Source: Eukaryota sp. GEM-RC1
Lineage: Eukaryota
DNA length: 64,000 nucleotides
Assembly (NCBI GenBank): GCA_040285855.1
Contig: JAUFOQ010000013.1
Location: 682,001-746,000 of the forward strand
Direction of reading: 5' to 3'
Of this stretch, positions 25,060-60,488 are shown piece by piece. The translations under genes were made by a program, and so were the position numbers. Within the stretch, counting starts at the first letter, position 1. The number at the start of each line of letters is the position of its first letter. Under the pieces are notes generated by a model. The model saw only the letters and a program-made list of their open reading frames with translations. It had not been told where the DNA came from and did no database searches.

Positions 25060-26935
25060 ATGGACTGCTTCGTTTGTTGTGAATCGTTCAATCTCTCGAA
25101 CCGTCTTCCCCTGCTTATCTGCTGCGAAGGACATACTTGTTGCTCTGAATGTGCTGCGTCACTGAATCGATGTCCTCTTTGTCGTAGCCATTGTCTTGGA
25201 CAGAAAAAGGTGAACTTTGCTCTGCAGGATCTGATCAAAGCATCTCGCGATGGTGAACTTTGTCCCCAAATTCCCGCAGATCAAATCGTTATCGGAGATA
25301 AGATCGCGGAAGGAGGTTTTGCTGAGGTATATTCCGCCCAATGGTTTGATCTCCCTGTCGCCATCAAGATGGTCTCCCTCACAGAGAAAGGACGAATAGA
25401 ACTCCAGAGAGAAATGAATCTTCTCTTCAATCTCAACCATCCTGCTGTTTTACGTGTGTTCGGTACCACCTACTTTGATGATATCATTGGTATCGTCATG
25501 GAATTAGCTTCTTCTTCCCTCCCCCTCCCCAAGTCTTCTCTCTCCAACTACTGTTAGGTACGCCAAAGAACTTTGCCAGGCAGTGAAGTTCCTCCATCTC
25601 AAGTCTGTTGTACATGGAGACTTGAAGCCAGCCAATGTCCTTTTGGTTGACGACCATGTAAGAGTTGCTGATTTTGGCACTTCCAAGAACCTCGCCGCCA
25701 CAACTCTAGTGACTAGACCAAATGCCATGAGTTTCAAGTATGCTGCCCCTGAGCAGTTTGAATCAAATGCTAGTACCTTCAGTGATATTTATTCTCTTGG
25801 ATTAATACTATATGAACTTTTAACTGGGCGGGAAGCTTTTGCTAGTTATTCAATGATGATACCTTTTGATGATTCAACACCAGAGTGTTTGAAAAAGTTG
25901 ATATTGAAGTGTTTAAATCCAGAACCTTCATTACGACCTCAAATTAATGAAATCACTGATATTTTAAATACTTTGGATGTTTGGGAAGCTGGTGGTGGTA
26001 TTTATGACCAATCATTTTTGATTGAAGGAAATGAATCTTTGAAAACGAAAATTGATGCTCTCAGTGATGAAGTTTTGAACTTGAAACGTGAGAATTCTGA
26101 ACTGTTACAAAAAATTCAAAGTAAGGACAATGAGCTTCGTGATATGAAAAAGTCTTCTAACCAACAAATTTTAAATTTGGAAACTGGCAATTTTTCCTTA
26201 AGAGAAAACAGTAAACATCCTAAATCTGAAGTTGTAAAATGCAAATCTCATGATACTGAAGTTCCTCACAAATCTATTGCACCGAAGCGAAAGAAAAAAT
26301 TACAACAAGAAATACCTGTAAAAAGGGAACTTAATAGTAACAGTGAAAATGATTTGAGTAACTTTAATCCAAGATTGAGGGGGGTTTTGGAAGAAATTAG
26401 GAATGGGTCTGTTAGTGAGGCTAGACTGGATAACCCTTATTTTGGTGATAAGGATGACCATATTGGTAATGAAGGTGCCATTGCAGTGGCTGAAGCTTTG
26501 AAGGTCAATTCCACTGTTACTCAGATTTATCTTCAGTGTAACTCTATTGGTAATGAAGGTATCATGGCATTGGCTGAAGCTTTGAAGGTGAATTCCACTG
26601 TTACTGAGATTTATCTTAATTGTAACTCTATTGGTAATGAAGGTATCATGGCATTGGCTGAAGCTTTCCAAGTGAATTCCACTGTTACTAAGATTCTTCT
26701 TTTGGATAACTCTATTGGTAATGAAGGTGCCATTGCATTAGCTGATACTTTGAAAGTAAGATACACTATTACTGGGAGTAAGCTTGACCCTTACTGTATT
26801 GAGGATTTAATGGCATTGACTGAAGCTTCGAAGTGGAATTCCACTGTTACTACGATTGGTCTTGGGCTTAACTCTATTGACTCTGAGACTAAACAACTCG
26901 TCAAAAGAATCTCGGATAATCGAATCGTGTTCTAA
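25060..26935 (+). CDS. RING - protein kinase - coiled coil - LRR protein, paralog of 13584..15257 (one frameshift ~25520)
   Basis: Same RING and kinase motifs; about six LRRs; short in-frame deletion in the kinase C-lobe relative to the paralog. Confidence 0.85.
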
Positions 26936-32000: not shown

Positions 32001-33102
32001 ATCCTATATCCATTGAATCTCCTCAATCTTCTGGTGCACTTTTCTCTCACAAACCTTTTGCTTCTTTACATTTGGACCTCATACAGTTTCCAACTGATAA
32101 TGACGGAAATACCTACCTTCTTGTTGCTGTGGATAGCTTTACCCGCTTTACAGTACTTTGCTCTTTGAAGCAGTAGCTTTACAACTCTTTGAAAAGGTGT
32201 TTTCAGTTTTTGGTGTACCAAAAGCAATTCATTCCGATAACGAACGAGAATTCACCAATAGGGTGTGGACATCTATTTTGTCGAAGTTAAATGTAAAACA
32301 GAGTTTTTCTATTCCCGATCATCACCAAAGTAATGGCTTGGTCGAAGCTCGAAATCGTGAAGTAGTATCACTGACAAGAAAGCTTTGCATGACCACAAAT
32401 GACCGAAATTGGAGTCAGTACATTCCTCTCATCCAAATCCTCATCAACTCAAAACCTTGCTCTACAACATCATTTTCTCCATACACCTTACTTTTTGGAT
32501 CAAATGGACTTCAGCGGTCCGTTCTTGACGTCTTTTACTCTCACAACGACTCAACTCGACTCAATCTCTGTTCTTTTGCACAGTCCTATTTGTTTAGATG
32601 CGACTTGAACGATTCCCTCCAGAGATTGGAAGAAGAAGCGAAGAAACATCAAGAAAAACGCATTAAGAATGCATCCTCTCCATCTTTCAAAGAAAATGAT
32701 CTAGTTCTACGAAACAATGCCGCTGACAACAAACTACAAAAACACCTTGGCCCATTTATCATCAAAGAAAAGATGAGCAACTCCAAGTACCTCATAAAAA
32801 GCCTCATCACTAATCAAGAATTTGTTGTTTCTTCCTTTGCCCTTGGATCTTATAAGTCGAACTCTATAGAGGAAGCAACTGCTGCAGCTGCCAAAGACGT
32901 TTCTGAATATGTCGTTACAAAAATTCTGGATCATAACATCATTGATGATCAGTATGAGTTCCTGGTTGAGTTTACATCTGGTGTTAAGAACTGGGAACCA
33001 CTCTCATCACTAAAGAACACTCGTACTAATGAAGAACTTTTGAAGTACTGTAAGTCCAAGAAAATTAAGATACCTCCTTGCACACGAAAGAAGAAAGGGT
33101 AG
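29082..33102 (+). pseudogene. gag-pol polyprotein (CCHC knuckle, aspartic protease, RT, RNase H, integrase, chromodomain) with frameshifts and a stop
   Basis: CFYCHQPGHIAAKC; LLDTGA; YIDD; ADAS..EKELFA..TDHRNL; HSDNEREF, SNGLVE; EYVVTKILDH..YEFLVEF..NWEPLSSL chromodomain. In-frame TAA at 30590-30592 in the RT frame. Confidence 0.92.
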
Positions 33103-42020: not shown

Positions 42021-43997
42021 ATGTCATTTGCACAAAGAGTAACAGCAAAAGCCCTGGATCTGATCCAGACTTGTATCGAGATCACTCATGAAGCTGCAGC
42101 TGGTCATCCTTCTTCTTCTGCTTCCTTAGCTCATCTCATGACAGTTCTTTGCTACAAACACATGAAGTGGGATCCTCAAACTCCCGACAGTCCTCTTTCT
42201 GATCGAATAGTTCTCTCAGAAGGACACGCTGCTCCCATTGTTTATGCAATTGGTGCTGATCTTGGGATAAGCATTCAGGACTATACTACCAAAGCTACAC
42301 GTCCAATGACCCGAAGTGATGCTGACACTCTCAGAAGTCTCAATTCTCCTATAGAAGGTCATCCCAACCCTGCTTTTGGGTTTAAATTCTTTCCAGCAGC
42401 AACAGGATCTCTCGGACAAGGTCTCAGCGTTGCACTAGGATACGCTGCTGCGTCTAAGCTTGACAATATACATCGTAGTGTCTTCTGCATAATAGGAGAT
42501 GGTGAATCTCGAGAAGGGCAAATCTCTGAAGCATTGGATTTTCTAGTTGACCACAAGCTGTTTTCGGTTTGTCCAATTTTCAACTGCAATGGATGGGGAC
42601 AAGCCAGTCTGGTTTCACCTCAACAATCCCCAGAACGGCTTGTAAAGAAACTAAATGCATATGGTTTTGAAGTTGCTCAAATTGACGGTCATAATGCTGA
42701 TGAAATCCTCCATGCATTCAAACAACACGATGAATCAGTTAAAAAGGAGGTACCATTTGCTATTGTTGCAAAGACAACTAAGATGTGGGGCTGTCCATCC
42801 CTGTATACCAAAAATCTTCACGGAAAGGTTGTACCAGACGTACAAGCTGCATTAACGGAGTTGAATAGTTTTCGAAAACAACTGAAAGTCGAAGGACTGA
42901 GTCTCAACATGGACTGTGAAAAGCCACAAGGTCAAGTTCCACAACGTTCTCCACAGAAACCATTACCAAACACGTTTCAGGAGCTGATGCAACAGGCTGG
43001 CAAGGACGTTCCTGATCAAATCGCTACTCGTAAGGTTTATGGTTATGCACTTAAAGTGTTTGGTCTGTCTGATGATGATGTGATTGCTTGTGACGGAGAT
43101 GTTAAAAATAGTACTAACGTTCAGGAGTTTGCAGATGATCCGGTTCTTGGAAAGCGTTACTTTGAGGGAAAAATTGCTGAACAAAACATGATTTCTTTTG
43201 GTATGTGATGATATTGACAACTAATCTCAGGCGCTGGAGCTGCTCTTCAGGGGAAAATCCCATTCATCTCTTCGTTTGGACACTTTTTCTCGAGAACTTA
43301 TGATCAAATATCACTTGCTGTATATTCCGAAGCTAATCTCAAAATTGTAGGATCCCATGTTGGTCTAGGTCCTGCTAGTGATGGGCCTTCTCAAATGGCT
43401 CTTACTGACATAGCCTGGAGTACTAGTCTTGGTTTAATGAAACGACATTCTGATGGAAACCCAGCTTTACTAACAATCAATCCTTGTGATGGTCCGTCTA
43501 CTTGGAAGTTACTGTGTCAGGCAAAGGAGTGGAACGGTCCTTGTTACATTAGGGTCTTACGTCAGGATACTCCAATGATTTATCCTCATGATTGTGACAT
43601 TGAACTTACACGTGGCTTTAATGTTGTAAGTAGTGGCAAGACCAATGCTATTCTGGCTTCTGGATTGATGGTACATGCAGCGTTGAGAGTGGCAGCGAAG
43701 ATGTCGGTTCAACCTACAGTGATTGATGTGTACGCTTTTCCTTATTGTGAGAACTCACTGTTTGAAACTTTGAATGTCCTTGGAGTTGGGAAAATACTGA
43801 CACTTGAGGACAATTGTGGTTCATCATTAGGTGCGCTTGTTTCCTCCACAGTTTGTGACAAGTGTCCTGGAATTGGTGTGAGACAATTGTATGTGAGAAA
43901 AGCACCTAAATCAGGTCGCTCAGTGCAGGATTTGCTACAATTTGAAGATTTAGATGATGATACCATTCACTCAGTTGCATTAGAATTTCTTAGATAA
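42021..43997 (+). CDS. TKT: Transketolase (one 30-nt intron)
   Basis: GHPSS, SEGHAAP, ATGSLGQG, GDGE..EG..CN ThDP motif, IAEQNM, DGPSQMA. Confidence 0.93.
43201..43230 (+). other. 30-nt spliceosomal intron
   Basis: GTATGTGATGATATTGACAACTAATCTCAG contains in-frame stops; removal gives EQNMISFG-AGAALQGKIPF. Confidence 0.9.
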
Positions 43998-44062
43998 AGT
44001 TCCAATTCAAATTTTCAAATTTTAAAATGTGGGAAGAACAATTTCTGCTCAGCAACATCTTA

Positions 44063-45052
44063 ATGAATTCTTCAATGCACTTTAAACCCGCAAGCACATG
44101 TTCTATTCTTGATCATGGACCAACGATTAACCATAGTCAATTACGCGATTTGGTGAGAGAACATGCTGGTATAGTGTATACTCTTTGTCGTGACTGTGTG
44201 TTTTCATATAATCTCAGGACAAAGAGAAAGCTGCGGCTACCTTCTTTATCATTTCACCCCCTTTGCTTGGATGTAAACCATGGCTATGTTGTTACTGGAG
44301 GCCAGCGTGGTGAGTTGAATATCTATCATCTTTCCTCTCAACAATCAGTCTATACTGGGCGCATCGCAGAGGACACTGTCAACTCTTTACAACTTGTTTA
44401 CTATCAGAACTCAAATGTCATGTTGACTGTCTCCACCAATGACAGCTATATTTCCATGTATACGCTACCATCGATGGAGCAGCTTCCTGATCTCTCCTTT
44501 AATGCTCCTGTGAATCACACTTCAGTGTCTCCAAATGGCAAATTGCTTGCAACTGTGGGTGATCACAACCTGACATACTTATATGGAAACAACAATGGTC
44601 GATGGACCAAGATTCATGCTTACAATTGTTTCACTGATGCCGGATTCACAACGGACTGGAACTGGCAATCATTGATGTGGGCGTCTGCTTCTCAAGATGG
44701 AACAGCAGTTGTTAACGATGTTAGATACTCTGGAGTTTTGAAGAAGTTGTCTGCTTATAGACATCCTGAAAACCCAGATGGTGTTTCATCTTGTTTTCGA
44801 TCATGTAAGTTCTCCAAATGTGGAACAACTGATCTTTTAGCGTTCTCGCAGCATCGTTCCTATGTGATGGTGTGTGATGCTAGAAACTTTGCTGATACAA
44901 ATGTTCTTAATGTTGGCAGAGGTGTTGATCTAGCTGGTTTGTGTTTTGTTGATCATGATCGTTTTCTTTTTTACGCAACAGAAGACGAAATAGGGACAGC
45001 GGCCATCAATAAGGCTTCACGATTAAGAAGATGTGATCTGGATTTTTTGTAA
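44063..45052 (+). CDS. WD40-repeat protein (DUF2415-like), copy 1; start uncertain (44027/44063/44075)
   Basis: HSQLRDLV, GGQRGEL, VNHTSVSPNGKLLATVGD, ASASQDG, FRSCKFS, DLLAFSQH. Confidence 0.8.
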   Translation: MNSSMHFKPASTCSILDHGPTINHSQLRDLVREHAGIVYTLCRDCVFSYNLRTKRKLRLPSLSFHPLCLDVNHGYVVTGGQRGELNIYHLSSQQSVYTGRIAEDTVNSLQLVYYQNSNVMLTVSTNDSYISMYTLPSMEQLPDLSFNAPVNHTSVSPNGKLLATVGDHNLTYLYGNNNGRWTKIHAYNCFTDAGFTTDWNWQSLMWASASQDGTAVVNDVRYSGVLKKLSAYRHPENPDGVSSCFRSCKFSKCGTTDLLAFSQHRSYVMVCDARNFADTNVLNVGRGVDLAGLCFVDHDRFLFYATEDEIGTAAINKASRLRRCDLDFL

Positions 45053-45401
45053 TTTCTAAGCGTGATTCGATGGTTTTTTTTGAAAAATTCAAATAGTTAA
45101 TCTAACTGATTAATTGTCTGCGTCGTCTTGTTTATTGTTTGTAGCAGATGTTGAGGTGCACAATACATGACTCGAATGTTAAAGTTCTTCAGTTGATGAT
45201 ATCAACGTTTCTAGACTTTTAACTGTTGTTTACTTGATTGTTCGCTTCTATCAGGGAAGCAACAATATGATCACTGTTGCGACCTTATCATCATCCAATA
45301 AATTTTGAATACTACAGAATGGGATCTCTCAAATGATATCTTTACTACAATAGATCTCCTATGTTCCACTAATATCCGATAAGCTTTTTGCTTACTAAAC
45401 C

Positions 45402-46400
45402 ATGCTTATTCTTGATAGTTCCTCATTCTTTAAACACACAAACCCTCGATCTATTCTCGCTTCTGCACCGAAGATATCCCACTGGCAACTACGTGATTTG
45501 ATGAGAGAGTATAATGGAATCATTTACTTCACTCATGCAACAAGAGTATTTTCGTACAATTTGAGAACAACCGAGAAGTTTTTGCTACTTTCCGTGTCAT
45601 TTTTCCCTACTTGCTTGGATGTAAACCATGGCTATGTTGTTACTGGAGGCCAGCGTGGTGAGTTGAATATCTATCATCTTTCCTCTCAACAATCAGTCTA
45701 TACTGGGCGCATCACACAGTCCGTTGTCAACTCTTTACAACTTGTTTACTACCAGAACTCAGATGTCATGTTGACTGTCTCCACCAATGACAGCTATATT
45801 TCCATGTATATGTTACCATCAATGGAGCGGCTTCCTAATATCTCCTTTAATGATCCTGTGAACCACACTTCAGTGTCTCCAAATGGCAAATTGCTTGCAA
45901 CTGTGGGTGATCACAACCTGACATACTTATATGGAAACAACAATGGTCGATGGACCAAGATTCATGCTTACAATTGTTTCACTGATGCTGGAATGACAAC
46001 GGACTGGAACTGGCAATCATTGATGTGGGCGTCTGCTTCTCAAGATGGAACAGCAGTTGTTAACGATGTTAGATACTCTGGAGTTTTGAAGAAGGTGTCT
46101 GCTTATAGACATCCTGAAAACCCAGATGGTGTTTCATCGTCGTTTCGATCATGTAAGTTCTCCAAGTGTGGAACAACTGATCTTTTAGCGTTCTCGCAGC
46201 ATCGTTCCTATGTGATGGTGTGTGATGCTCGAAACTTTGCTGATACAAATGTGCTTAATTTTGGCAGAGGTGTTGAGCTAGCTGGTTTGTGTTTTGTTGA
46301 TCATGATCGATTTCTTATGTATGCCACAGAAGATGAAATAGGAGCAATGGCTATCAATCTTCCGGCGAGACTGAGAAGTTGTGATCTAGACTATTTGTAG
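45402..46400 (+). CDS. WD40-repeat protein (DUF2415-like), tandem copy 2
   Basis: HWQLRDL and the same motifs; central ~700 bp nearly identical to copy 1. Confidence 0.8.
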   Translation: MLILDSSSFFKHTNPRSILASAPKISHWQLRDLMREYNGIIYFTHATRVFSYNLRTTEKFLLLSVSFFPTCLDVNHGYVVTGGQRGELNIYHLSSQQSVYTGRITQSVVNSLQLVYYQNSDVMLTVSTNDSYISMYMLPSMERLPNISFNDPVNHTSVSPNGKLLATVGDHNLTYLYGNNNGRWTKIHAYNCFTDAGMTTDWNWQSLMWASASQDGTAVVNDVRYSGVLKKVSAYRHPENPDGVSSSFRSCKFSKCGTTDLLAFSQHRSYVMVCDARNFADTNVLNFGRGVELAGLCFVDHDRFLMYATEDEIGAMAINLPARLRSCDLDYL

Positions 46401-46722: not shown

Positions 46723-47428
46723 CTACTTACGCGATGCCAGAGCTTGTTCAAGTTGTGTCTTTAACTGCATGTTAGTCTTTTTCAGACAATTAATCTCCTC
46801 CTGGAACTTCAGCTCAGCCGCATGCTTCTGTTCAGCCATTCTCCTCTCCACTGTCTCTGATCGAACTCTCAAGTCCCCCAACTGTTTAGTCAGAGAGTCA
46901 ATCTCTTCCTTGAGTGTTGTCACCTTTGTTTCAGCCTCTGCTTGTTTCTTCTCAGCGTCAAGAGCCTTTCTGAGTCCATATGCAATAGATGATTCGTAGA
47001 GGGTTTCATAAGCATCCAGGGTCATTTTAAGCTCGTCCCGGATCCTTAGAAGTAACAAACCTCTCTCAGCACAGGTAATTGTTACTTGGCGGATGAGTTC
47101 ATCAAAGACTTGGGAATAGAGTTCTCGTCGAATAGGACAAATGCCCATGTCTAGGGCTTGACGTGCTTTTAACCTATCATCTAGTTCTTGTTGAAGTTGG
47201 ACTACTTCTAATCTGGTTGCAGGTGCAGAAGAAACAGTTTGGATCCAAAGTTGACCATCTTCTTCGAACTCACTGCTATTAGTGAATTGAAGGAGCATAC
47301 CGAGGAGGGAGAATAGAATTAAGAATGTCTTGAGTTTGAGATGCAGGTTCATTTTTCTTAGTTTTAGAAGACACTAGAACAGGTTTTTCATAAGCAAGAA
47401 GAGAAGATTTACTGTTAATCTGGGTCAT
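46723..47428 (-). CDS. DNALI1: Axonemal inner-arm dynein light chain p28 (one 28-nt intron 47273..47300)
   Basis: After splicing: DILNSILPPREFEEDGQLW..SSAPATRLEV..QARxxGICPIRRELYSQ.FDELIRQVTI.CAERGLLLLRIRDE. Confidence 0.93.
47273..47300 (-). other. 28-nt spliceosomal intron
   Basis: Minus strand GTATGCTCCTTCAATTCACTAATAGCAG; removal restores LPPREF. Confidence 0.9.
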
Positions 47429-48558
47429 TTAGGATAGTCAAAGTATGATGTGAAGAATGTAACAGTAGTTTTCATTTTGGGTGAATATCCCCTGTCCATT
47501 TTCCAATCTTTTTACTTATGGGATATACTTTTGGAATGCTTTGGGACTCAAGACTCGACTTAACGAGCATGTCTATCCACGCTTCGGAAGACACCAAAGT
47601 GAGGGATGTTTGGTCCTATCTCTGGATGCGGACGATCCATCTTCTGATGAGTCATCAGAGACTCTGATGATGCTTCTGTGAGGATCCTCTTGCGTGAATT
47701 TTATTCCCCTTCCCTTTCATCTCCCCAACAATTCCCCCATCTCCTCTTCCGTGGTCTGTTGTGTCCTTTTATACATGCCATTATCCTTCCTAAGGTTATC
47801 TGAAGTACAATCTAGTGCAGAACTTCACTTCCTTCGTATTCAATCGAGGTAGCTTCTTTCTTCCATTAAAGTAAGTTGAAGTTGTATTTCCCATATGTGA
47901 TTTTAAATTTCTGAGATAAATATTGTTTATTCGTAATTAGAACCAACCAATGTGTGCTGCAAATAGGGATCATTACCTACCGATATATTTGTCTCGCAAA
48001 GGCAGTTGCTTCTGCAATTTCCAATTGTTTAGTAATATAACCATTGGGTTTTTAAGACTGTATATCATTGGTCTATCGCACAGTAGCAATAATCAGTCAT
48101 ATAGAATGCTTAAAGAGAGGACTGGACGTTGTCACACTTGTTTTCAAGGTGTTTGAGAGAAGTCAAAATGAAGTAAAAGTAGGATCAAAGGAAGATCTGA
48201 TGATGGGGACTGAGTGTTTCTAAAAGGAAGACGAGTCTTGAGTTTCTGGCAAAAGACTTCTGATCATTGTGGCCTGAATAGAGACCGCAAAAGGCGCATC
48301 TTAAAAGATAGAATCGTGAATGAAACTAACATGAAGATATTCTGAGAGAGTGAGGTATAATGACTAAAATTGTTGAGAGGAGGTAGGAAAGTTGTACACC
48401 GTATCTAGAGAAGGAGACAAAGTTTTGCCATAAATTAACCGAGTTGTAAAGTGGAAAGTAAACTGTTGACAAACTAACAATCAAGTTGGAAACTGAATCC
48501 TGCCGAGAGGAAAGTGACGAGAACGAATCACAATGTCGACAATTGTTATTTCCTTCCC

Positions 48559-49527
48559 ATGTCTCCTGTCAGTCTTCCCGAAGTAGTTCACGGCCCGGAG
48601 TATACACTTTATCCTTGTGGTTCATCCTCTCACAACAATGGTGACACTATATTTCCCCCGCCTCTTAAGAAGTCTCACCTGTCTTCTGTAGATGACATCC
48701 CACTGTATTGCCTTATTGATTTTAAAACGGTCATTACCGATAGTGAACGACTTACCCCACTCCTTTTCAATGTTAAGAAGAAATCTCTTCCGAAATGCAC
48801 TACTACAGAATCTTCAACAGAAATTGTTTCTGAAGAACAAGAGGCTGCTGAAGTTCCAACAATCAGTGAAGAAATTGAAGTGTCCAGGCCAGAGCTGGGA
48901 CCAAATGCGGAGGATGATCAAATCATCCTTATTGTCCTCACATTTATTTACACCAATTTCGTTTCTACTGTTGTCATCAGTACCAAAAAAACAAGTGATG
49001 TTGATGGTGTTCAAACAATTACTTTTCCATCAGAAAAAGTCATGATTAATGGTCTTATATCTTTACTGTCCGAGAAAAAGCCTAGATTGCTTATAAGTTA
49101 TAACTCTGAAAAATTATTGTTCCCGTTTTTAATTGCACGATGTAAACTTTTGAACATCTCCACCACATTTAATGTGGATGAGCCATTCAGGCCTTTTATT
49201 CCCATCTGGTTCTATAGATGGTGTAAGCAAAGCGAATTTGGACCATTTATTTCCCTTGATATGGCAAATGTTGTAAAGTCAACCTATGTTTTCAAAGGTG
49301 GTAGAGGTTTAGAAAATGTTTGCTCCAAATTGTTTCAAAAGGCAATACCTAATTTAATTTTATCACCAACTGAATTCAAAACTTACTTCAACCAATTCAA
49401 AAAAATCCTAAAAATATCAACGGTTAGCGAACAGGAGAGGGAGTTTACTTTGCTTGCTCAAAATATTAAAACTTCCAAGTTATGGATGGATGACAAAAAC
49501 GCAACTCTCTGGTTGAAGATTTGCTGA
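48559..49527 (+). CDS. Inactive family-B DNA polymerase 3'-5' exonuclease-like domain; probable N-terminal part of the Fanzor ORF
   Basis: PNAEDDQIILI, GVQTITFPSEKVMI, KPRLLISYNSEKLLFPFLIARC and LDMANVVK..YVF..GLENVCSKLF parallel the Pol delta/zeta exo motifs (PE.E.DPVIQI, F.tE.ELL, PDII.GYN...FD.PYL..RA, D....Y.L..Y.L..V). Acidic catalytic residues are largely lost. Confidence 0.65.
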   Translation: MSPVSLPEVVHGPEYTLYPCGSSSHNNGDTIFPPPLKKSHLSSVDDIPLYCLIDFKTVITDSERLTPLLFNVKKKSLPKCTTTESSTEIVSEEQEAAEVPTISEEIEVSRPELGPNAEDDQIILIVLTFIYTNFVSTVVISTKKTSDVDGVQTITFPSEKVMINGLISLLSEKKPRLLISYNSEKLLFPFLIARCKLLNISTTFNVDEPFRPFIPIWFYRWCKQSEFGPFISLDMANVVKSTYVFKGGRGLENVCSKLFQKAIPNLILSPTEFKTYFNQFKKILKISTVSEQEREFTLLAQNIKTSKLWMDDKNATLWLKIC

Positions 49528-52317
49528 ACAAAATTAAGATGTTGTCCGAATTGAAGAATTATTTTTTTGATGAAGAAATTCAGCTTGTTTTAGACCGCCC
49601 TCCGATTAAAGTCGTAAAAAAAGGATTGGATAAGGTTTTCAGAGAATTGATTAAAATTTGTTCTAAACGAAATCAAAAAAGCAACTGTGAGGGGGAACCA
49701 CCTTCTTGAAGCATTTGCTTCTACGTGAATTTGAAGATTTTGGAAGAATCGAAGCTGAATCAATAGTCAAAGAAAGAGAATTGATGTTACTGCACGATGA
49801 CCCTTCGTTGTCCATGATTGGAAGTGATTCAGAGTCTTCTGAGAATTGTAATATCTGCTATAATTACAAAGACTTTTCGGTTCGCTTACCAGATTTGGAG
49901 TCCTTTTTGGCTCTTGGATCAATAAGGCACGTTCTCCGACGAATGTATGTGGAGAAAAAAAAGGCTTGCGGTATTTCCGACTTGAAAATGTCAAAAATAG
50001 AAGCAGAAGCAGTTTTACAAAATGAAAAATTTGATCATTCTTTGAAACAAAAAATCGCATTACACTACTGTAATAATTTTTATCCAATTCTTGACTCTCT
50101 GTCTCATGAAATTGGAAGTAACAACATTTCTTTTCCTAATTTGGAGTTTATGTCAGGCATTTATCATTATACAGCTAAACAAATTGAAACCAATTATGCT
50201 AACAATTTGGCGAAATACTTCCACAACTATGTCTTTCGCTACTTTAACATTGTTACGTTGAAGAACTATCGTCTTAAACAAATTAAAGAGCAACACTTAA
50301 AGAAGGAATTGAAATCAAAATTAAATTCCATCAGAGAACTGATTATTGATGGGAACTTTGAAGACATTCCAATTGATGATCATATTATTTTCCCCTTCCC
50401 GCAATCAGAATTGACTTTAATCTTTTTTGCATATTTGAAATTCTGTTTGTTCCCTACCAATGCCAAAGGCAAGAATCTTTACTACGCTCAGAAAGTCAAG
50501 CCAATACAATTTCTTTCTCATGCTGTTTATATCAACAGAATCATTCAGTCTTTTTGTTCAATTGATGGAAAACCCTTAAAGGTTAATAATCCGTTCCCAA
50601 TGACCAAGACGTTGGTCCCACAACATATTAGATTAGATACTGCTTGGATAAACCAAAGAGTTTTAAATTTGAAAGGTTCCGCTAACGTTATTCGAAAGGA
50701 AGTATTTGACTCTGTACTTACCGAAACTGCTATTACATCATCACGATCATTTGGTCTGAAGTATTCTTCGATTGTAACAGATGGCATTTCCTGTTCCTTG
50801 GTTATGATTCGAAAAGATTTGCTGGATGAAAACGGTAACACCTTTGAAGATTTTACCGCAAAACCACTAATATCTTCGGAAAGATATATTGACTCTTTAA
50901 CGTCGGAAGACATTGAAAAAATGAACCTGACAGAAAAGCGAATAATTGGCATTGACCCGAATGAATATGACTTGATGTTTTGCGTATCTCCAAAAACAAA
51001 TGAAGAGATATTATTTGAAGAATTTTCTTGTTCCGACAACAGTCCCACGAAAAAACGGCTACCTTCAGAAATGAGACTGAAACAGAAAGGTGGTATTAAA
51101 AAAAGAAAAAAACAATTGAACCAATGGAGACAAACCCCATCTCAACGAGTACGGCTGAAACCAAACCACTTTTTGGCCAGCTTCAGGTACAGTACTGGGG
51201 AGAGATCATATGACCGAAAAAGCAAGAAATATCGGTTGACTGAAAGAAGAAAACTAAAAACTTCCTTCTTTGAAATTACGAAAACAGAAACTGAAAGATC
51301 GCTCCAAGATTATACAGTCGAAAATTCTAATGGTAGAACTGTTTCTGGTCAAAAAATCCTCGACGAATTTGCTCTTACCGTCTCTAGAGGACAACAAAGG
51401 TTCTGTTTCAGTGATGAGTTCGAGACTTACATCAAAGAAGCTGAACGGAGTTGTGTATACCTGAGTGATTTCTATGACGACGATTGGTTTACGAAAAGGA
51501 AGTTTCAAATTTATTCCAACAATCAACAGAGTGAAAAGAATATGTTGGAAAGGTTTAAATTAACCTATGGATCTCCAGAAGACCTTGTCCTTGGTTACGG
51601 GGATTGGAGTTCTAAGGGAAACACAAGAAAAGGTAAAACTCCAGCTATTAGAGGAGCAGAAATCCGAAGAATTTTAAGAAAATTCGGGTATAAGGTATTT
51701 CTAGTTGACGAATACCGTACCAGCAAGTCCTGTTCAAAGTGTGCTGCTCAAGGACTATTTGGATTATGTACAAATGATCCATCTATCAAAGTTTTAGGCC
51801 CAAGAGGACTGCGTCAAATAAGACGGAAGAAGAAGAAACTCAAGGAAAAAGTACTGGTCTACAACAGTAAGGATCCACCGAAAAGAGAAGCTTTGAAGAC
51901 GAGTGGGAGAAGATAAAGAAGTCCGTAGAAGTAAAAGCTAAGTCAACACCATGGGGGCTGGTAAAATGCAAAATGTGCAAGACTTATTGGAATAGAGATC
52001 TCAACTCTTCGATCAATATCTATTCCATTATCGAAGCCGCCATCAAAGGTCAAGCTAGACCATCTATTCTCGAGAGATCAAAAACTTTAACAACTGATTT
52101 CGAGAGTGGTAATGTTACTTTGAAGAGAGATCGAAAAAAGACTGCAGCGAAAAAGACTCGTAAAGAAAGAGAGTGTGGAGAATGTGGACAAACAGGTCAC
52201 GACATACGAACATGTCCACAGCTAGATGAGTCAAACCAGGGTTCACCTAAAACTGGATCGAGAAAAGAAAAGGAGGAACCCCAACGAAGGCAGTCAAAAG
52301 AACAAGATCTCCCTTGA
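49521..52317 (+). CDS. Fanzor (eukaryotic TnpB-like RNA-guided RuvC endonuclease), split by frameshifts at ~49690 and ~51890, with C-terminal CCHC knuckle
   Basis: VPQHIRLDT, TDGISCSL, RuvC-I IIGIDPN (D at 50954), FRYS, GYGDWS, RuvC-II LVDEYRTSKSCSKC (E at 51710), CKMC-x3-WNRDLNSSINI RuvC-III (D at 51997), CGECGQTGHDIRTC. Confidence 0.88.
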
Positions 52318-52460
52318 AGAAATCAGTCCACCATAAACGGTCGGGCAGCGCTATGTGTATGAAGCTATCTCAGTCTCACCGTATCATCTCATAGCATAGC
52401 GTGTCTGTGATGCCTAAATGGATATGACCAAAGTGGGAGCAGGATTTACTTTGGGAGGAT
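52310..52460 (+). ncRNA. Candidate Fanzor omegaRNA scaffold
   Basis: Directly 3' of the Fanzor stop codon. Stems CGCTATG(52349-55)/CATAGCG(52395-401), extended by GGGCA/TGTCT and TATGA/TCATA, and CCAAAGT(52428-34)/ACTTTGG(52448-54). Confidence 0.55.
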
Positions 52461-52498
52461 TATCCTTGTGGAATGAACTTCACAGAAAGTCAATCTTG

Positions 52499-54690
52499 AT
52501 GTCTCTTCTCTTTTCTGCTGCTCCTGTTCATTCTCGTAATGGTGTAGACTCTGCATATCTCTTTGACCTTCATCTTTTAGCTTATTGCGCATCATCATAC
52601 GTTGTTCTAGCTAATGCAGCAAATTCTGAAGTCCTATGTGTCTTCGATTGTGCGTTATCTGCAGCAGATGTCTCCTTTGATGAACTGCTTATACCATCAG
52701 TAGATCACCACTTACATTCCGTCAAATTCATCATAAACGAACATTCAACACCTCTACCATATCTTGTTGTTGGATTTCCCGACAGCAGAGTTCTACTACT
52801 AAACATTGAGTCCACACAGTTCTCTTTCAACTTAGTTAAGTCCTCAGTATTCACTCTACCAGGAGAGAAATCCCCAATCTCTGTAACTTCACTGTGTTCA
52901 TCATCTCTTGACGTGTTTCTATTTGCTGCCACGTCTCTTACTTCCATTTTCCTGTTTGACTCAAACACTGAAGCAGTTTCATCTTGTTATACTTCTACAA
53001 GCGATCTCATTGAATCCTCCCTTCTATTCTATCCCTCTCCCACGTCATCTCCTCTTCTAGCCATCGGAATCACCTCTGGCGATGTCCTGATCTTTTCCAC
53101 TTCCTCTTTCTCTCTCCTCCACAGACTCAAAGGCCACGTCTCCTCTCCTTCTGTTCTTGCCTTCTACAACTCCTACCTTGCCACTGGTGGATCTGAAGGC
53201 TCCATCCGCGTCTACTCCTTCTCCAACTCCTCCTACCATGTTGACACCATCCTCTCCCCCTTCAAGAAACCTGTCGTTGGTCTCTCCTTCTTTCCTTCCT
53301 CTTCCCCAATGCTAACTGCCCTCTCAGTTGAGGGAACCCTTGCTCTATACAAACTCCACCCTCATCTCCCTTGGGAACTGGACCTTTTCCCTCCTTCTAA
53401 GGAAGAGGATCCTTCTCTATTGGTCTCAATGGCTATTACCAAGGGACTTCCCCTAAGAGTTTTCTCTGTGTTTAGAGAGGGGGGAATGAGCCATGTAGAG
53501 GTAGATGTTGAGTCAAAGATTGTAAAAGATTGCTTTTTCAATGGGGGTCATTTGGGTCCAGTGACTTCTCTTGACTGGTCACGTGATTATCCTATGTTGT
53601 TGAGTGGTGGAGCTGATCATTCTGTGAGATTGTGGGCAGTTACTAAGAATAGTAATAGGATGTTTGAATTTTCAAGACCTTTGATCCATGGTCACGTCAT
53701 CAAGAAAGTCTTTTTGATCCAATCACGCCCTTCAGAGTCGTGATTGCTTCTTGTGAGAACGCTGTTCGTGTACTAGATGCCACGTCAGCAGTTACGAAAC
53801 TTCTTGAAAACACGTGTGGGTTTGATATCCCCCGCCTACCCTGGGTAGACCTGAACGGAGTCCTGCAGCAGAACTCCAAGAGTTGGGTCTTTCTACTCAG
53901 TTATCCAGTAGAGATTTAAGTCACTTGACTTCTCTTGACCATCCGCCAGCCGAGCACCAGTTAATGTCTGATACTCTTTGGTTGGAAGTCTGTAGAATTC
54001 CTGGCAGAGCCACTGCTGATGTGGAGACGTGTTGTCTTGCCATATCGGGAGTCGTGATTGTGAGTCATGATGATGGTTATCTATCAGTTCATAAAGCTGG
54101 AGTTCAATCAGCAGAGGGTGAGGATCGGTATCATCTCCTTGGGGAAGGTTTCGCTGGACTTAAGAAGACTGATATCGTGATTGGATTACACGTCATCAAT
54201 CAGACTTGTATGGCAGTCACGAATACTCTCAAGGTTTTTATTTTTGATTTAAACAAGTTGGATGGGTTTTCAACTGATATTACTGGTGATTGTTCGGTCA
54301 AAATTGATTTTAAAGAGATTTCGGTTGATTTCGGAAATAGTCTAGACTTTTCCCCTTGCTGTGGATCTATTGGTGACGTGTTTTTGATTGGTTTGGGCAC
54401 TCACTTACTATTTTTGGAGGAATCAGGACGTGTTTTGAGCCGAGACCGAGTTGATCAAGTTATCTCTACAATCTGTTCGATTGATGATATGATTGTGATT
54501 GGTTGCTCCTCCGGTGACGTCATGTTTGGCAAGTATCACGATGGATTTCAATTAATTCGGTCTGTCAAGATCTGTTTTACTTTAATTACTTCTATTTCCT
54601 GTAAATGGAATAATGATTCCTTCTTTTGACCGTCAGTTCATCAAATGGATTGGTGTATGGGCTCAATTGTGATTGGAATCTGAAAGAAGT
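52499..54690 (+). CDS. ELP2: Elongator complex protein 2-like WD40 protein (frameshifts ~53710, ~53840, ~54625)
   Basis: GGHLGPVTSLDWS..LLSGGADHSVRLW, FEFSRPLIHGH, LGLS, PPAEHQLMSDTLWLE match ELP2 motifs (EIARPQIHG, PP.E..L...TLWPE). Confidence 0.75.
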
Positions 54691-55774: not shown

Positions 55775-56660
55775 TCGAAACACTTTTTACTGTGTTGTAA
55801 CCTTCATGGCGGTTAGTTGGTTCAGAAATCTATTAAATATTCAATTTTCAGCACTTTTACAATACAACAAACATGTTATGATACGATTACTACTGTAGTT
55901 GTTCAGGAACACACAATTTCAAATAGTGTTTTCAACCTCAAAGGTCAAAGTGATTGAATCAGTTTGAAAACTTCTTAGGACCTTTAATGCATCTAAAGGA
56001 GTTAGAGTTATCGATAACATTCAAAAAGCAGTAAAAGTGTATATTATACAATTGAATTTTCATCTAACAACTTGGCCAAAATGTAATAAACGTATCTATA
56101 AATTGACTTAAGAAGTAGAAAAGTTAATATAATCCTATTTATACATGTTACACTTTTAAGCAAATTTTGAACTCAGTTTTCCAAAGCAATTCAGAAACTC
56201 TTTAGTGTAACTGCTACAATGATAAAAAAGATAAAAAATACTTTGAGAAGACAACACTCCTACGGTGGATATCTAGAAGTTTTTGTATATCTGAAAATGA
56301 CAACATCGGCAAATTGGAGGAATCTTGCAAATGCAAATTCTTTAGTGTGAAGTAAAGTGTACAAGTGACTTCAGTTGGAGTGAAGTTACACATCACCAGA
56401 AATGACTAAATAGGTTTAAGATAGGGTGGTAAGTTGAAACATCATTATAGAACTTGGCAATAGGACAAACATATACAGAAGAATTTCAGAGGTTTATTGT
56501 ATGAAAATAAACTTTCTAAATATGATACAAAATTTCAATAAGAATACATACGGAAGATGATGATGGACGAAGAAAACGTCATCAATTGTTACGTGGTGAG
56601 TTAACAAAAGAGAATTAGCACTTGATCCGATTATTTGAGATTCTTTCGATGAGTTGTTTA
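55775..56660. repeat. 3'-flank duplication shared with the kinase-LRR gene (homologous to ~10490-10675 and ~12966-13630)
   Basis: Colinear sequence such as GACCTTTAATG.ATCTAAAGGAGTTAGA and CAACTTGGCCAAAATGTAATAAACGTATCTAT in both places. Confidence 0.85.
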
Positions 56661-59600
56661 GTCTCAGAGTCAATAGAGTTAAACCGAAGTTTAATCTCAG
56701 TAACAGTGGAATTGACCTTCAAAGCATCAGCCAATGCAATGGCACCTTCAGTACCAATAGAGTTAAACCCAAGAGGAATCCGAATAACAGTGCAATTGAC
56801 CTTCAAAGCATCAGCCAATGCAATGGCACCTTCATTCCCAATAGAGTTTTCCCAAAGAGAAATCCGAATAACAGTGCAATTGACCTTCAAAGCATCAGCC
56901 AATGCAATGGCACCTTCATTCCCAATAGAGTTTTCCCGAAGACCAATCTCAGTAACAGAGGAATTCACCTTCAAAGCATCAGCCAATGCAATAGCACCTT
57001 TAGTACCAATAGAGTTTTCCCCAAGATAAAGCTGAGTAACAGTGGAATTCACCTTCAAAGCTTCAGCCAATGCAATGGTACCTTCAGCACCAATAAAGTT
57101 TTCCCAAAGATTAATCCGAGTAACAGTGGAATTGACCTTCAAAGCTTCAGCCAATGCAATGGCACCTTGAGTACCAATAGAGTTTTCCCGAAGACCAATC
57201 TCAGTAACAGAGGAATTCACCTTCAAAGCATCAGCCAATGCAATGGCACCTTGAGTACCAATAGAGTTTTCCCGAAGACCAATCTCAGTAACAGAGGAAT
57301 TCACCTTCAAAGCATCAGCCAATGCAATAGCACCTTTAGTACCAATAGAGTTTTCCCCAAGCTCAATCTTAGTAACAGTGGAATTCACCTTCAAAGCTTC
57401 AGCCAATGCTATGGCACCTTCAGTACGAATAGAGTTAAACGCAAGATCAATCATAGTAACAGTGGAATTCACCTTCAAAGCATCAGCCAATGCAATGGCA
57501 CCTTCAGTACCAATAGAGTCCCTTTTAAGACCAATCTGAGTAACAGTGGAATTCACCTTCAAAGCATCAGCCAATGCAATGGCACCTTCAGTACCAATAG
57601 AGTTACTACCAAGATCAATCCGAGTAACAGTAGAATTGACCTTCAAAGCATCAGCCAATGCAATGGCACCTTCAGTACCAATAGAGTTAACAACAAGATT
57701 AATCTGAGTAACAGTGGAATTCACCTTCAAAGCTTCAGCCAATGCAATGGCACCTTCAGTACCAATAGAGTTAACAACAAGATTAATCTGAGTAACAGTG
57801 GAATTCACCTTCAAAGCTTCAGCCAATGCAATGGCACCTTGAGTACCAATAGAGTTACTATCAAGCTCAATCTTAGTAACAGTGGAATTCACCTTCAAAG
57901 CTTCAGCCAATGCTATGGCACCTTCAGTACCAATAGAGTTACTACCAAGATCAATCCGAGTAACAGTAGAATTGACCTTCAAAGCATCAGCCAATGCAAT
58001 GGCACCTTCAGTACCAATAGAGTTAAACGCAAGATCAATCATAGTAACAGTGGAATTCACCTTCAAAGCATCAGCCAATGCAATGGCACCTTCAGTACCA
58101 ATAGAGTCCCTTTTAAGACCAATCTGAGTAACAGTAGAATTGACCTTCAAAGCATCAGCCAATGCAATGGCACCTTCAGTACCAATAGAGTTACTACCAA
58201 GATCAATCCGAGTAACAGTAGAATTGACCTTCAAAGCATCAGCCAATGCAATGGCACCTTCAGTACCAATAGAGTTAACAACAAGATTAATCTGAGTAAC
58301 AGTGGAATTCACCTTCAAAGCTTCAGCCAATGCAATGGCACCTTCATTACCAATAGAGTTTTCCTGAAGATCAAGCTCAGTAACAGACCCATTCCTCATT
58401 TCTTCCAAAACCTGCCTCAATTCAGGTTTTAACTTACTCAAATGTATATTTTTTAATTGTAAAACTTCAGACTTAAGACTTTCAATATCCTCTCTTAAAA
58501 AACGATTGTCAGTTTCCAAATTTGAAATTTGTTGGTTGAAGTTCTTAACTTCATCGGGGAAGTTCATATTTGCTCCCACCAGTTCAACTCTCAACTTTGC
58601 CACGTCAGCAGCGAGTGTGGCAGTCGATGATTGGATTTGAAGAGGGACCATTCGGAGTAAGAATCTGTTAAGTAAAGGCTCAATATCCACGTCATCAAGT
58701 AAATCAGACAAAGTCTCAGAAATGACGTTTGCAGTCTCTAAAGTACATGTGATGGATTTCAAACAGCTGCTAAACTGTGACTTTGTCCAATCAGATTTTA
58801 AATTTTGCCAGGAATTGCGTAAACATTTAGCAAGGAAAACAGAATCAACGTTAAAAGAAGAAAGAATTTCAAATAGATCTGGAGTTACTTTGATTCCATT
58901 ATCAGTAGATTTGATTGATCTGAGACGTTGTCCATGTTTTTTAACAAACATGAGATCATTTAAAGTACTTGCTTGTTCAATAAATCCTACATCAAAGTTA
59001 ACTTCTATAAAGTCATTTCCAGCAATAACTACTGACTCTACTTGAAAATAGGATCCTAAATAGGTCAACTCAAAAGCATTTTCAGTAGTCAATTTGATTT
59101 TACTTCCACTCAAAAACTCAAAAAAGCTTTGAAAACTTTCTCTTGGCACCTTCAGCATATCATCAAAGCTAAGTTCTTGTTCATTTGAATCAGCCCATTG
59201 ACTAGTCCAAAGGTTAGCAAAGTACTTAGAATAACAACATAAGTGAAGCCTATTTGTTTTAGCAATATAGTCTTTATACTTCAGTTGCACTTCATGAGGA
59301 GTTTCCCTCTTCAACTTTTCTAGAATAGTTGATCCTTGGAGAGAGAAGACTTTGTTACTAGACTGTAGTCCCTTTAGTTGAAGGTTGGTGCAGTGGGAGA
59401 TCAAAGGAGTGTACTTTAAGAGTTTTGCGATCACATGAATGTCAAAGAGATTGGTTTCGTTGATGTCTAAAGGAAAGCCGTACATGGACAACATAATGGC
59501 TTCAAAGATCGAGGGATCTTCAACCATTCCCGAAGAGTTGATTTCAACATGATCTTGGCGATCTAGTTTTTCAAGGTATTTGGAAAAGAGAATGACAATG

Positions 59601-59722
59601 GAGAAGTGGCAGTGGAACTCGAAGTCCTCGAACTCAATAACACAGTCAGTGAGATGATTGTTGGATCGGAGATATTGTAGCTGTTCGATGGCTTCCTTGG
59701 CAAAGTCAGATATGGAGAGCAT
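56615..59722 (-). CDS. BTB-BTB - coiled coil - RI-like LRR protein (about 21 LRRs)
   Basis: Intact 1035-aa ORF. LTDCVIEF..FHCHFSIV..FSKYL and LCCYSKYFANLW BTB motifs; 28-aa repeats NSTVTxIxLxxNSIGTEGAIALADALKV. Confidence 0.92.
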   Translation of the reverse strand: MLSISDFAKEAIEQLQYLRSNNHLTDCVIEFEDFEFHCHFSIVILFSKYLEKLDRQDHVEINSSGMVEDPSIFEAIMLSMYGFPLDINETNLFDIHVIAKLLKYTPLISHCTNLQLKGLQSSNKVFSLQGSTILEKLKRETPHEVQLKYKDYIAKTNRLHLCCYSKYFANLWTSQWADSNEQELSFDDMLKVPRESFQSFFEFLSGSKIKLTTENAFELTYLGSYFQVESVVIAGNDFIEVNFDVGFIEQASTLNDLMFVKKHGQRLRSIKSTDNGIKVTPDLFEILSSFNVDSVFLAKCLRNSWQNLKSDWTKSQFSSCLKSITCTLETANVISETLSDLLDDVDIEPLLNRFLLRMVPLQIQSSTATLAADVAKLRVELVGANMNFPDEVKNFNQQISNLETDNRFLREDIESLKSEVLQLKNIHLSKLKPELRQVLEEMRNGSVTELDLQENSIGNEGAIALAEALKVNSTVTQINLVVNSIGTEGAIALADALKVNSTVTRIDLGSNSIGTEGAIALADALKVNSTVTQIGLKRDSIGTEGAIALADALKVNSTVTMIDLAFNSIGTEGAIALADALKVNSTVTRIDLGSNSIGTEGAIALAEALKVNSTVTKIELDSNSIGTQGAIALAEALKVNSTVTQINLVVNSIGTEGAIALAEALKVNSTVTQINLVVNSIGTEGAIALADALKVNSTVTRIDLGSNSIGTEGAIALADALKVNSTVTQIGLKRDSIGTEGAIALADALKVNSTVTMIDLAFNSIRTEGAIALAEALKVNSTVTKIELGENSIGTKGAIALADALKVNSSVTEIGLRENSIGTQGAIALADALKVNSSVTEIGLRENSIGTQGAIALAEALKVNSTVTRINLWENFIGAEGTIALAEALKVNSTVTQLYLGENSIGTKGAIALADALKVNSSVTEIGLRENSIGNEGAIALADALKVNCTVIRISLWENSIGNEGAIALADALKVNCTVIRIPLGFNSIGTEGAIALADALKVNSTVTEIKLRFNSIDSETKQLIERISNNRIKC
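56670..58395 (-). repeat. 84-bp tandem repeat array encoding the LRRs
   Basis: Unit ..ACCTTCAAAGC(A/T)TCAGCCAATGCAATGGCACCTTCAGTACCAATAGAG.. repeated about 21 times. Confidence 0.95.
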
Positions 59723-59904: not shown

Positions 59905-60488
59905 CGTGTAATGCAAATGTTCCGTACTGATGTGATTTTAGTCGTATCGTACCGTCTGTACTTTTAACTTACTAAGATATATTATTACTATTTTGAACAT
60001 GATGATCCAATGTGAGATTTTACAAGTTACCATCGACATAAATTCTACCGTTAAACATTGGTCAGGATGTGAATATAGTGATTGACACTCTGAGTCATAT
60101 TTAGGGTACGTCATTTGCTGACCACAACTTCAAAATGACATTTCTACGTACGAAGCTCAGCAATCGTTCGACATCAACAATAACAGTACCGTCTTCGAAT
60201 CACAATGTGTTTATTGACTGCACACGACGTAATACAACAATGATAAAGGGCCCAAAAACCCACAGATTGGATTTCTAAACGTTCAGAAGATGCAGAAGCA
60301 ATTTGCACTAGTACTGTGTTTGAATAGTTAATGAACCTCCACTTAAAAACCAGTCTTTGTAAATCCATTTAGATTATTCATAAATAGACTCTATATAAAC
60401 TCAAATGACATCGGTACGGATAAAATTTGTAAGTACGTACCGATCCGTTCCGATCCGTACTGTACGTATCAAAGACTTGCGCACATTG
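59905..60488. mobile_element. MITE-like element, copy of the 27162..28588 family without the nested hAT
   Basis: Colinear with 27165-27250 plus 28225-28588; GTAC-rich ends. Confidence 0.6.

Follow-up and report, generated by a model that had tools for sequence, protein, structure and literature searches.

The DNA analysed here (the window) is a stretch of 64,000 nucleotides from Eukaryota sp. GEM-RC1 (contig JAUFOQ010000013.1, positions 682,001 to 746,000). On its plus strand, positions 48559-52317 are covered by four reading frames in the open reading frame (ORF) list and lie between two host genes, one coding for an axonemal dynein light chain and the other for a WD40 protein according to Pfam. 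A preliminary description of the sequence had proposed that these frames encode one protein of about 1250 residues, in which the proofreading exonuclease domain of a family-B DNA polymerase (PolB) precedes a Fanzor; 48559-52314 amounts to 1252 codons, in agreement with that length. We conclude, with near certainty, that the window carries a frameshifted copy of a multi-copy Fanzor1 gene that starts with a PolB exonuclease domain. The parts of this gene and its flanks are listed in Table 1. The Fanzor motifs are found in the third and fourth frames (GIDPN, GYGDW, VDEYRTSKSCSKC, CKMC, WNRDLN and the C-terminal CCHC knuckle).

Comparison with its paralogs indicated four frame breaks in the window copy: -1 at 49492-49500, +1 at 49676-49681 (a run of six A), +1 at 49690-49694 (a run of five G) and -1 near 51882, the last one cutting RuvC-III off. 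Two single-base shifts, at about 49510 and 49690, had been described before, which this comparison corrects. There are in addition in-frame losses of 1 residue at about 49430 and of 5 residues at about 49645 (3 and 15 nt), and stop codons stand at 49525 and 49707 in the given sequence. One window ORF, 49494-49709, holds both the degenerate ExoIII motif EDLLNK and the first Fanzor1 strand PIKVVKK, so that the junction between the two domains is in frame in the window itself. Introns were ruled out as the cause of the breaks, since none of the host type (GTATG..CTAAT..AG) was found in 48559-52317 and the paralogs are colinear with the window DNA.

Table 1. Parts of the exonuclease-Fanzor1 gene and its flanks, in window coordinates.
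Feature	Positions	Strand	Basis or method
Upstream stretch expected to hold the left end (1.1 kb)	47420..48558	.	Transposase, inverted repeat and 2A scans
N-terminal portion of the fusion: PolB-type 3'-5' exonuclease domain, to the first break	48559..49497	+	Pfam PF03104, paralog identity, model and fold search
ExoI DFK	48715-48729	+	Motif positions
ExoII YNSEKLL	49099-49119	+	Motif positions
Fusion junction: degenerate ExoIII helix, 26-residue link, first Fanzor1 strand and helix	49494..49681	+	ORF list, alignments
Degenerate ExoIII helix EDLLNK	49515-49532	+	Alignments
First Fanzor1 strand PIKVVKK	49602-49622	+	Profile from 77 stand-alone Fanzor1 N-termini
Fanzor1 body: REC, WED, RuvC-I to first zinc-finger half	49691..51885	+	Matches to PpFz1, SpuFz1, GtFz1
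RuvC-I GIDPN	50948-50962	+	Motif position
Basic tracts resembling a nuclear localization signal	51098-51112, 51821-51844	+	Signal inferred from sequence
GYGDW	51593-51607	+	Motif position
VDEYRTSK (alternative RuvC-II glutamate) and CSKC (first half of the zinc finger)	51704-51742	+	Motif position
Fanzor1 C-terminus after the last break, ending in a stop	51871..52317	+	P0010 and P0014 read into the same frame
Second zinc-finger half CKMC	51967-51981	+	Motif position
RuvC-III WNRDLN	51988-52005	+	Motif position
Extra CCHC zinc knuckle after RuvC-III	52174-52215	+	Motif position
Non-coding gap, expected place of the omegaRNA scaffold and right end	52318..52498	+	Folding z-scores, Rfam

The exonuclease ORF and the Fanzor ORF of the window share one 90% cluster with 11 named Eukaryota sp. 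GEM-RC1 proteins, and a separate search added a twelfth. Their locus numbers are not adjacent, and with the window's own copy there are at least 13 near-identical copies in this species. Six of the 12 named paralogs bear the exonuclease domain; the window's exonuclease part is 94-97% identical to these six, and identity among the copies is 96-99.5% over 220 residues. Five of the six read through the position of the window's first break, four continue into the first strand of the Fanzor, and three also pass the double break at 49676-49697. One paralog, P0010 (1182 aa), runs as a single chain from the exonuclease through RuvC-II. Each of these proteins can be followed colinearly along the window DNA, so that no intron is needed to join the two parts. 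The proposal of one fused protein was therefore borne out by the four exonuclease-bearing paralogs that cross the junction in frame, and by seven of ten related proteins of a second species, Eukaryota sp. TZLM3-RCL (hereafter RCL), described below.

The identity of the N-terminal domain was established from the residues for which such a check had been proposed (those encoded by 48559-49527). Positions 48559-49524 matched Pfam DNA_pol_B_exo1 (PF03104) with an E-value of 1.7e-10 and 41.1 bits, the cut-off being 23 bits, and a single-sequence search with the window exonuclease ORF matched family-B polymerases in the PDB (best E 1.1e-4). A model of the paralog P0011, 94% identical to the window, gave Z 13.0-18.6 against 18 rows of PolB exonuclease domains, while Z for other DEDD exonucleases did not exceed 12.1; as PolB sequences were present in the alignment of this model, the fold match is not independent. 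For the RNA-specific DEDD enzymes of the RNase T, ERI and ISG20 type, Z was 9.5-10.0, and for the protein-primed phi29 polymerase 9.3. Pfam, the alignments and the fold search (with the same PolB rows in the model) concur on a DnaQ-like fold with ExoI, ExoII and ExoIII in that order, and an acidic insertion of about 50 aa follows ExoI.

The sequence had been described as following the exonuclease domain of Pol delta/zeta motif by motif. A delta or zeta donor is not shown, as the polymerases of herpes simplex virus and African swine fever virus, delta and epsilon fell within 1 Z unit of one another in the fold search, with T4 and RB69 just below. The best single-sequence matches also disagree (archaeal PolB for the window, yeast Pol delta for the RCL protein P0019, and a DPANN-type PolB in the protein database), and both Atlas searches for the donor scored below 0.9. 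A helix after ExoIII ('RG..LK') was considered as the RGQQ region of Pol delta and rejected, as it is Fanzor1's own first helix; the family of P0017 thus gives no evidence of an exonuclease domain. The suggestion that the domain is a relic of a Polinton or giant virus carrying polB found no support either: the six fused proteins scanned contained neither PF00136 nor PF03175, the flanks are host genes, the fold matched the exonucleases of RNA-primed PolBs better than that of phi29, and no capsid, packaging ATPase or Polinton-type gene was found among 39 window ORFs scanned.

We then considered whether the exonuclease could be active. In all 7 exonuclease-bearing sequences of the window's family, the ExoII aspartate is replaced by leucine (YNSEKLL), as had been described. 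ExoIII, which had been reported as missing, is present in the next ORF as EDLLNK, with both its tyrosine and its aspartate replaced; this segment aligns with SYCLND of the RCL relatives and with KYCVQD of giant-virus PolBs, and wherever ExoIII is covered, in 5 paralogs and the window ORF, the same Asp/Lys pair stands for Tyr/Asp. The P0011 model has a strand at residues 50-59, in which we take D54 to be the ExoI aspartate and K56 to occupy the glutamate position, assuming the usual catalytic numbering and no gap. The reading of ExoI as DFK fits this register, which was derived from the ranges aligned with the T4, RB69, epsilon, T7 and archaeal exonucleases; the sequence alignments allow two further ones. 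The exonuclease site is predicted to be dead in each register, because the acids of ExoII and ExoIII are lost. The domain keeps the structural positions E159, P175, Y181, N182, R194, D234 and L251, and its fold is retained in a model whose alignment includes PolB rows.

A relative of the window gene was sought in a database of 1.84 billion representatives, which returned 1094 matches. Among the 150 of these that were listed, P0019 (1473 aa, from RCL) was the sole other carrier of the exonuclease domain, and the same fusion was found in none of the 149 others. The two clusters of P0019 comprise 10 RCL proteins, of which 7 contain the whole exonuclease domain and the Fanzor in one chain; 6 of the 10 present every exonuclease and RuvC motif without interruption (6 of the 7 fusions are RuvC-intact). 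The search for the same fusion in related genomes, which had been recommended, thus had a positive outcome. Unlike the window's family, the RCL fusion keeps all five catalytic residues of the exonuclease: ExoI FDVE, ExoII YNCDKFD and ExoIII YCxND are intact in all 8 proteins covering them. The prediction of a dead exonuclease accordingly stands for the window's family and does not extend to its sister. The two families are 32.8% identical in the exonuclease and 33.9% in the Fanzor part, and the distance from ExoIII to the Fanzor is 26 residues in both; the closest PolB found shares about 27-30% identity with the RCL exonuclease. The intact residues of the RCL fusion suggest that the module was most likely captured, and selected, as an active 3'-5' exonuclease, the dead form of the GEM-RC1 family being derived by loss of catalysis.

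The RCL proteins also carry a 2A/StopGo-like motif. In all 8 proteins with an N-terminus (P0019, P0166, P0168, P0177 and P0180-P0183), GDVExNPGP, once as NLGP, is found about 30 residues past the likely start, and about 165 Ser/Pro/basic residues separate it from the exonuclease domain. No 2A motif was found in the window, including the upstream stretch. Motifs of the 2A type occur in viruses and non-LTR retrotransposons, and their activity is not universal (PMC3708506); in a limited search of the 2A literature, we came across no Fanzor element described as having a 2A motif.

The C-terminal part was assigned to Fanzor1. Sequence profiles matched the Fanzor part of the window with PpFz1, SpuFz1 and GtFz1 (E 3e-21 to 7e-15), and a profile of 77 stand-alone Fanzor1 N-termini mapped the Fanzor start to PIKVVKK, at 49602. 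The window's own Fanzor part was assigned by sequence, and the RCL relative was used for the fold comparison, in which a model of the fusion matched Fanzor1 structures with Foldseek E-values of 2e-21 to 2e-15 and superimposed on three of them with Z 22.7-24.9 and a root mean square deviation of 3.7-4.9 Å over 549-596 residues. The next family reached Z 11.7, with ApmFz2 at 8.3 and TnpB at 8.9. The Fanzor1 motif D-X(125-275)-TS-XX-C4 zinc finger-X(5-50)-RD (PMC3627910) is present: the aspartate of GIDPN and TS are 254 residues apart in P0010, and the window has CSKC...CKMC followed after 5 residues by RD, across the break near 51882. Six RCL fusions contain the motif without interruption. A rearranged RuvC-II with an alternative glutamate is a further mark of Fanzor1 (PMC10530073), and GYGDW followed by VDEYRTSK aligned with the corresponding region of SpuFz1 and PpFz1. 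By every testable feature, the window gene is a Fanzor1 with an added enzyme domain.

In a FastTree phylogeny (79 rows, four of them under half filled), 11 Fanzor1 rows from Skoliomonas, the protists that carry the fusion, formed one clade with a support of 100, and with a midpoint root the two fused families fell on opposite sides of its deepest split. This position suggests a single early capture of the exonuclease domain in the Skoliomonas clade, whose other families are represented by fragments. At least three further GEM-RC1 Fanzor1 families were noted (P0002/P0169, P0017/P0187 and P0027/P0199; one cluster has 26 members), as well as Fanzor1 fragments in TZLM1-RC (P0022/P0025); the gene models of these further families are fragmentary. 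The C-terminal CCHC knuckle recurs in the GEM-RC1 and TZLM1 fragments P0169, P0187, P0022 and P0029 and is not present in the RCL fusions. P0005 and P0027 have consecutive locus numbers (007297 and 007298) and belong to different Fanzor1 families, possibly one element inside another.

Outside the Skoliomonas clade, we inspected 160 Fanzor1 loci (the best 80 of 357 and the best 80 of 126 matches) from metagenomes and viral contigs, many of them short or redundant. None carried a fused exonuclease, the longest Fanzor ORF was 821 aa, and a separate viral polB was near 4 of the 160. A search with the RCL exonuclease region (proteins of 810-2578 aa) returned, besides the two RCL clusters, a single PolB, of archaeal type; it was word-seeded, and distant relatives may escape it. 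The impression that this architecture is absent from described Fanzors agrees with the literature searched, in which no natural fusion of an exonuclease to Fanzor or TnpB was found; closed supplements may bear on this. The word 'exonuclease' did not occur in the main text, as accessible, of 10.1101/2023.08.09.552727, PMC10530073, PMC10432273, PMC3627910, PMC11423790 or PMC10691335, nor in the supplements of PMC10432273 and PMC10530073, and no literature on Fanzor together with Skoliomonas was found. Bao and Jurka mention DEDDh nucleases that accompany P and piggyBac transposons as separate accessory proteins (PMC3627910), and TnpB is known beside PrimPol genes (PMC10691335); neither is a fusion of the exonuclease-Fanzor1 type.

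What might such a fusion do? We hypothesized that the RCL-type exonuclease trims the end cut by the Fanzor and so favours copying of the element, the dead domain of the window's family being likely an end-binding unit, and we give this proposal an even chance. By homology with other Fanzor1s, an omegaRNA from the right end would guide a cut 16-21 nt past the target-adjacent motif (TAM) at an empty site; Fanzor guides derive from the sequence past the right end (10.1101/2023.08.09.552727), and SpuFz1 cuts the non-target strand after nt 16-17 and the target strand after nt 20-21 (PMC10432273). The TAM-side fragment would then be left with a 3' strand of about 16 nt of right-flank sequence. Since this sequence lies beyond the element on the filled allele, these 16 nt or so would form a non-matching 3' tail at the left junction and could re-anneal, restoring the empty site. 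Tethered on the TAM side, 26 residues ahead of the first WED strand, the exonuclease would remove the tail, and repair would copy the element into the empty site. In the GEM-RC1 family, trimming would presumably be left to the host, and the dead domain would persist as a folded unit that binds ends or has a structural part; an end-binding role, which had been put forward before, is plausible. Several published observations agree with individual steps: the authors of the SpuFz1 study propose cut-and-copy as a possible role (PMC10432273), WED contributes to TAM recognition (PMC11423790), the proofreading domain of T4 polymerase contributes to intron homing (PMC12153337), and in yeast a non-homologous 3' tail can be removed by Pol delta during gene conversion (PMC9477423). 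Dispersed copies, at least 13 in GEM-RC1 and 10 in RCL, imply mobility as far as can be read from the sequences.

Several findings weigh against this proposal. The window's family has reached at least 13 near-identical copies despite its lost exonuclease catalysis, which means that trimming is dispensable for it. RuvC-III is present in none of the 12 named paralogs, and the 6 copies that extend to the C-terminal region, the window's included, are all broken near 51882 or 51972, so that the GEM-RC1 family may be largely inactive. Cutting positions differ among Fanzor1s, GtFz1 cutting after nt 14-17 (PMC10432273). Engineered fusions with TREX1, TREX2 and T5 impaired MmeFz2, whose editing was raised by non-specific DNA-binding fusions (PMC12923547), which fits the loss of catalysis in the window's family. 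A joint model of exonuclease and Fanzor left the exonuclease unfolded, scoring below 50 in pLDDT (predicted local distance difference test) for most of residues 42-322, and placed the first strand of the Fanzor on exonuclease residues owing to a poor alignment. At the window copy itself, no omegaRNA signal above chance and no element ends were found. Folding of the region 3' of the gene gave z = -0.20, which is not significant, and neither is the stem-loop at 52342-52407 (z -1.3 to -1.4, from a single sequence); Rfam returned no match at the gathering score and two sub-threshold snoRNA matches only. No transposase was found in 8 upstream ORF pieces, nor any inverted repeat between the left and right sides above shuffled controls. 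A weak inverted similarity between 48006-48076 and 60232-60301 (72% over 71 nt, E 0.007) may be due to chance.

We considered the possibility that in both species the exonuclease domain helps the Fanzor to bind DNA or to stay soluble, RCL catalysis being incidental and its loss in the window's family costless. The MmeFz2 results also support this explanation, under which one understands that the domain is about as conserved between the two families as the Fanzor part and that its structural positions are kept. Yet the RCL fusion retains the five catalytic residues at about 27-30% identity to the nearest PolB, and this suggests that catalysis has been under selection in that lineage; we regard a binding aid as unlikely.

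The domain could also be a functionless vestige, and the window copy, perhaps the whole family, a decaying pseudogene. The window copy has its four frameshifting indels and two in-frame losses, no complete copy exists among the 12 named paralogs, and in the two host genes checked there were no indels, their frame changes being introns. However, the breaks vary by copy: among the 10 distinct break sites of the window and its paralogs, a script placed 9 on runs of at least 4 identical bases, against a background of 0.19-0.39 for such runs in windows of 10-20 nt, and the tenth lies next to a run of five T. The assembly behind the named copies was made from R9.4 nanopore reads and polished with short ones (PMC11316075), an origin that agrees with consensus errors in repeats. 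Neither 'Fanzor' nor five of the paralog locus tags occurred in the text-searchable supplements of that paper. Moreover, the aligned parts have no in-frame stops, the RuvC motifs are intact, and the near-identity of the copies over the exonuclease also argues against decay. The vestige explanation as a whole is in our view quite improbable, although the breaks themselves may be either sequence errors or decay.

About as improbable is that the exonuclease turns cuts into deletions, as in the engineered Cas9-TREX2, and blocks re-cutting or harms competing elements or viruses, instead of promoting homing. The anatomy would be identical, exonuclease fusions do serve to enlarge deletions, and the genomes of the named relatives are 48% and 28% repetitive (PMC11316075). 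Against this, a deletion at the empty site brings the element no gain in copies, and no guide or target was identified.

A role in processing the omegaRNA, proposed earlier, would consist in trimming its 3' end and so setting guide length. An omegaRNA must be cut from a longer transcript, and DEDD exonucleases trim RNA in other systems. But the domain is of the PolB type (Z 13-18.6), the RNA-specific enzymes coming only to about 10, and PolB exonuclease sites prefer DNA, which makes this role very unlikely. Finally, two neighbouring genes, or a Polinton or giant-virus polB relic beside a Fanzor, might be read from the two stops in the window and from the separate polB near a few other Fanzor1 loci; we give this hardly any credence, since 4 GEM-RC1 and 8 RCL proteins are fused in frame, the junction lies within one window ORF, no polymerase domain accompanies the exonuclease and host genes stand on both flanks, and at the family level it is already refuted by the uninterrupted RCL proteins.

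A broader and doubtful extension is that the Skoliomonas Fanzor1 is a single-gene, RNA-guided cut-and-trim homing unit. One chain would cut the empty allele and, by proofreading, shorten the end it has cut as far as the insertion junction. The 2A motif in RCL and the CCHC knuckle in GEM-RC1 are retroelement-like and would permit a route through RNA, in which a reverse transcriptase working in trans would use the trimmed 3' end as primer on an RNA copy, through which new sites would be reached. If true, this would be a natural eukaryotic gene drive, homing without a transposase. The biological role of Fanzors is stated as unknown (PMC10432273), and a natural pair of active and dead exonuclease-Fanzors points to events after the cut; it offers a ready comparison for the idea of cut-and-copy homing in a eukaryote. 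Engineered exonuclease-Fanzor fusions lost activity, so that an evolved, compatible one could serve to steer repair either to defined deletions or to templated insertion. For practical tests, the suitable objects are the six RCL proteins that are uninterrupted and have all motifs, the window copy being broken as given.

Other features of the window were noted. Host introns are very short (GTATG...CTAAT..AG, with the branch point beside the 3' splice site); examples are a 25-nt intron at 47269-47293 (minus strand) in the dynein light chain gene, where a suspected frameshift was ruled out in its favour, and a 30-nt intron at 43201-43230 (plus strand) in a transketolase gene. A Ty3/gypsy-like retrotransposon at 29082-33102 encodes a zinc knuckle, protease, reverse transcriptase, RNase H and integrase over at least four ORFs. 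Near-identical tandem WD40 genes lie at 43994-45052 and 45399-46400, both with open frames, and the second matches DUF2415; the WD40 gene downstream of the Fanzor has two frame changes, at 53711-53715 (T5) and about 53829 (C5), which are likely sequence errors. Genes of the kinase-LRR type, of which one has a RING at its N-terminus, and a BTB-LRR gene (24985-26935, plus; 13584-14741, minus; 56615-59722, minus) resemble an expanded receptor-like family.

Among known systems, the nearest to the Fanzor part are SpuFz1, PpFz1 and GtFz1 (PMC10432273, PMC11423790; PDB 8gkh, 9cf0, 9cer), which share with it the rearranged RuvC triad and multi-copy dispersal. The fusion differs from them in being about twice as long, in its N-terminal PolB exonuclease domain, in a basic zinc-finger insertion and in either a CCHC knuckle (the window's family) or an N-terminal 2A motif (RCL). 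The exonuclease part resembles the DEDDy domain of PolBs (Pol delta, epsilon, archaeal PolB, T4/RB69 gp43, herpes and giant-virus PolB) in its PF03104 match above the cut-off in both the window and RCL, its order of ExoI-III and its fold, with the catalytic D-E-D-Y-D kept in RCL. In contrast to these polymerases, it stands without the polymerase N-terminal, palm, fingers and thumb domains and has the acidic insertion after ExoI, and the window's family is devoid of the catalytic residues.

Two systems resemble the combination. In the engineered Cas9-TREX2, exoCasMINI and MmeFz2-TREX/T5 (PMC12923547, PMC12337685), an RNA-guided nuclease is likewise tethered to an exonuclease; those are man-made and their Fanzor2 versions are without activity, whereas the exonuclease-Fanzor1 is natural and employs a polymerase proofreading domain. 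In homing of the T4 td intron (I-TevI, DexA and gp43; PMC12153337), the endonuclease of a selfish element and a PolB-type 3'-5' exonuclease promote copying into the empty allele, but that system uses a protein-guided endonuclease and exonucleases that are phage proteins of their own, while here a single chain is proposed to be guided by RNA. We propose T4 td homing as a working analogy for the exonuclease-Fanzor1 fusion, which is no member of the T4 system.

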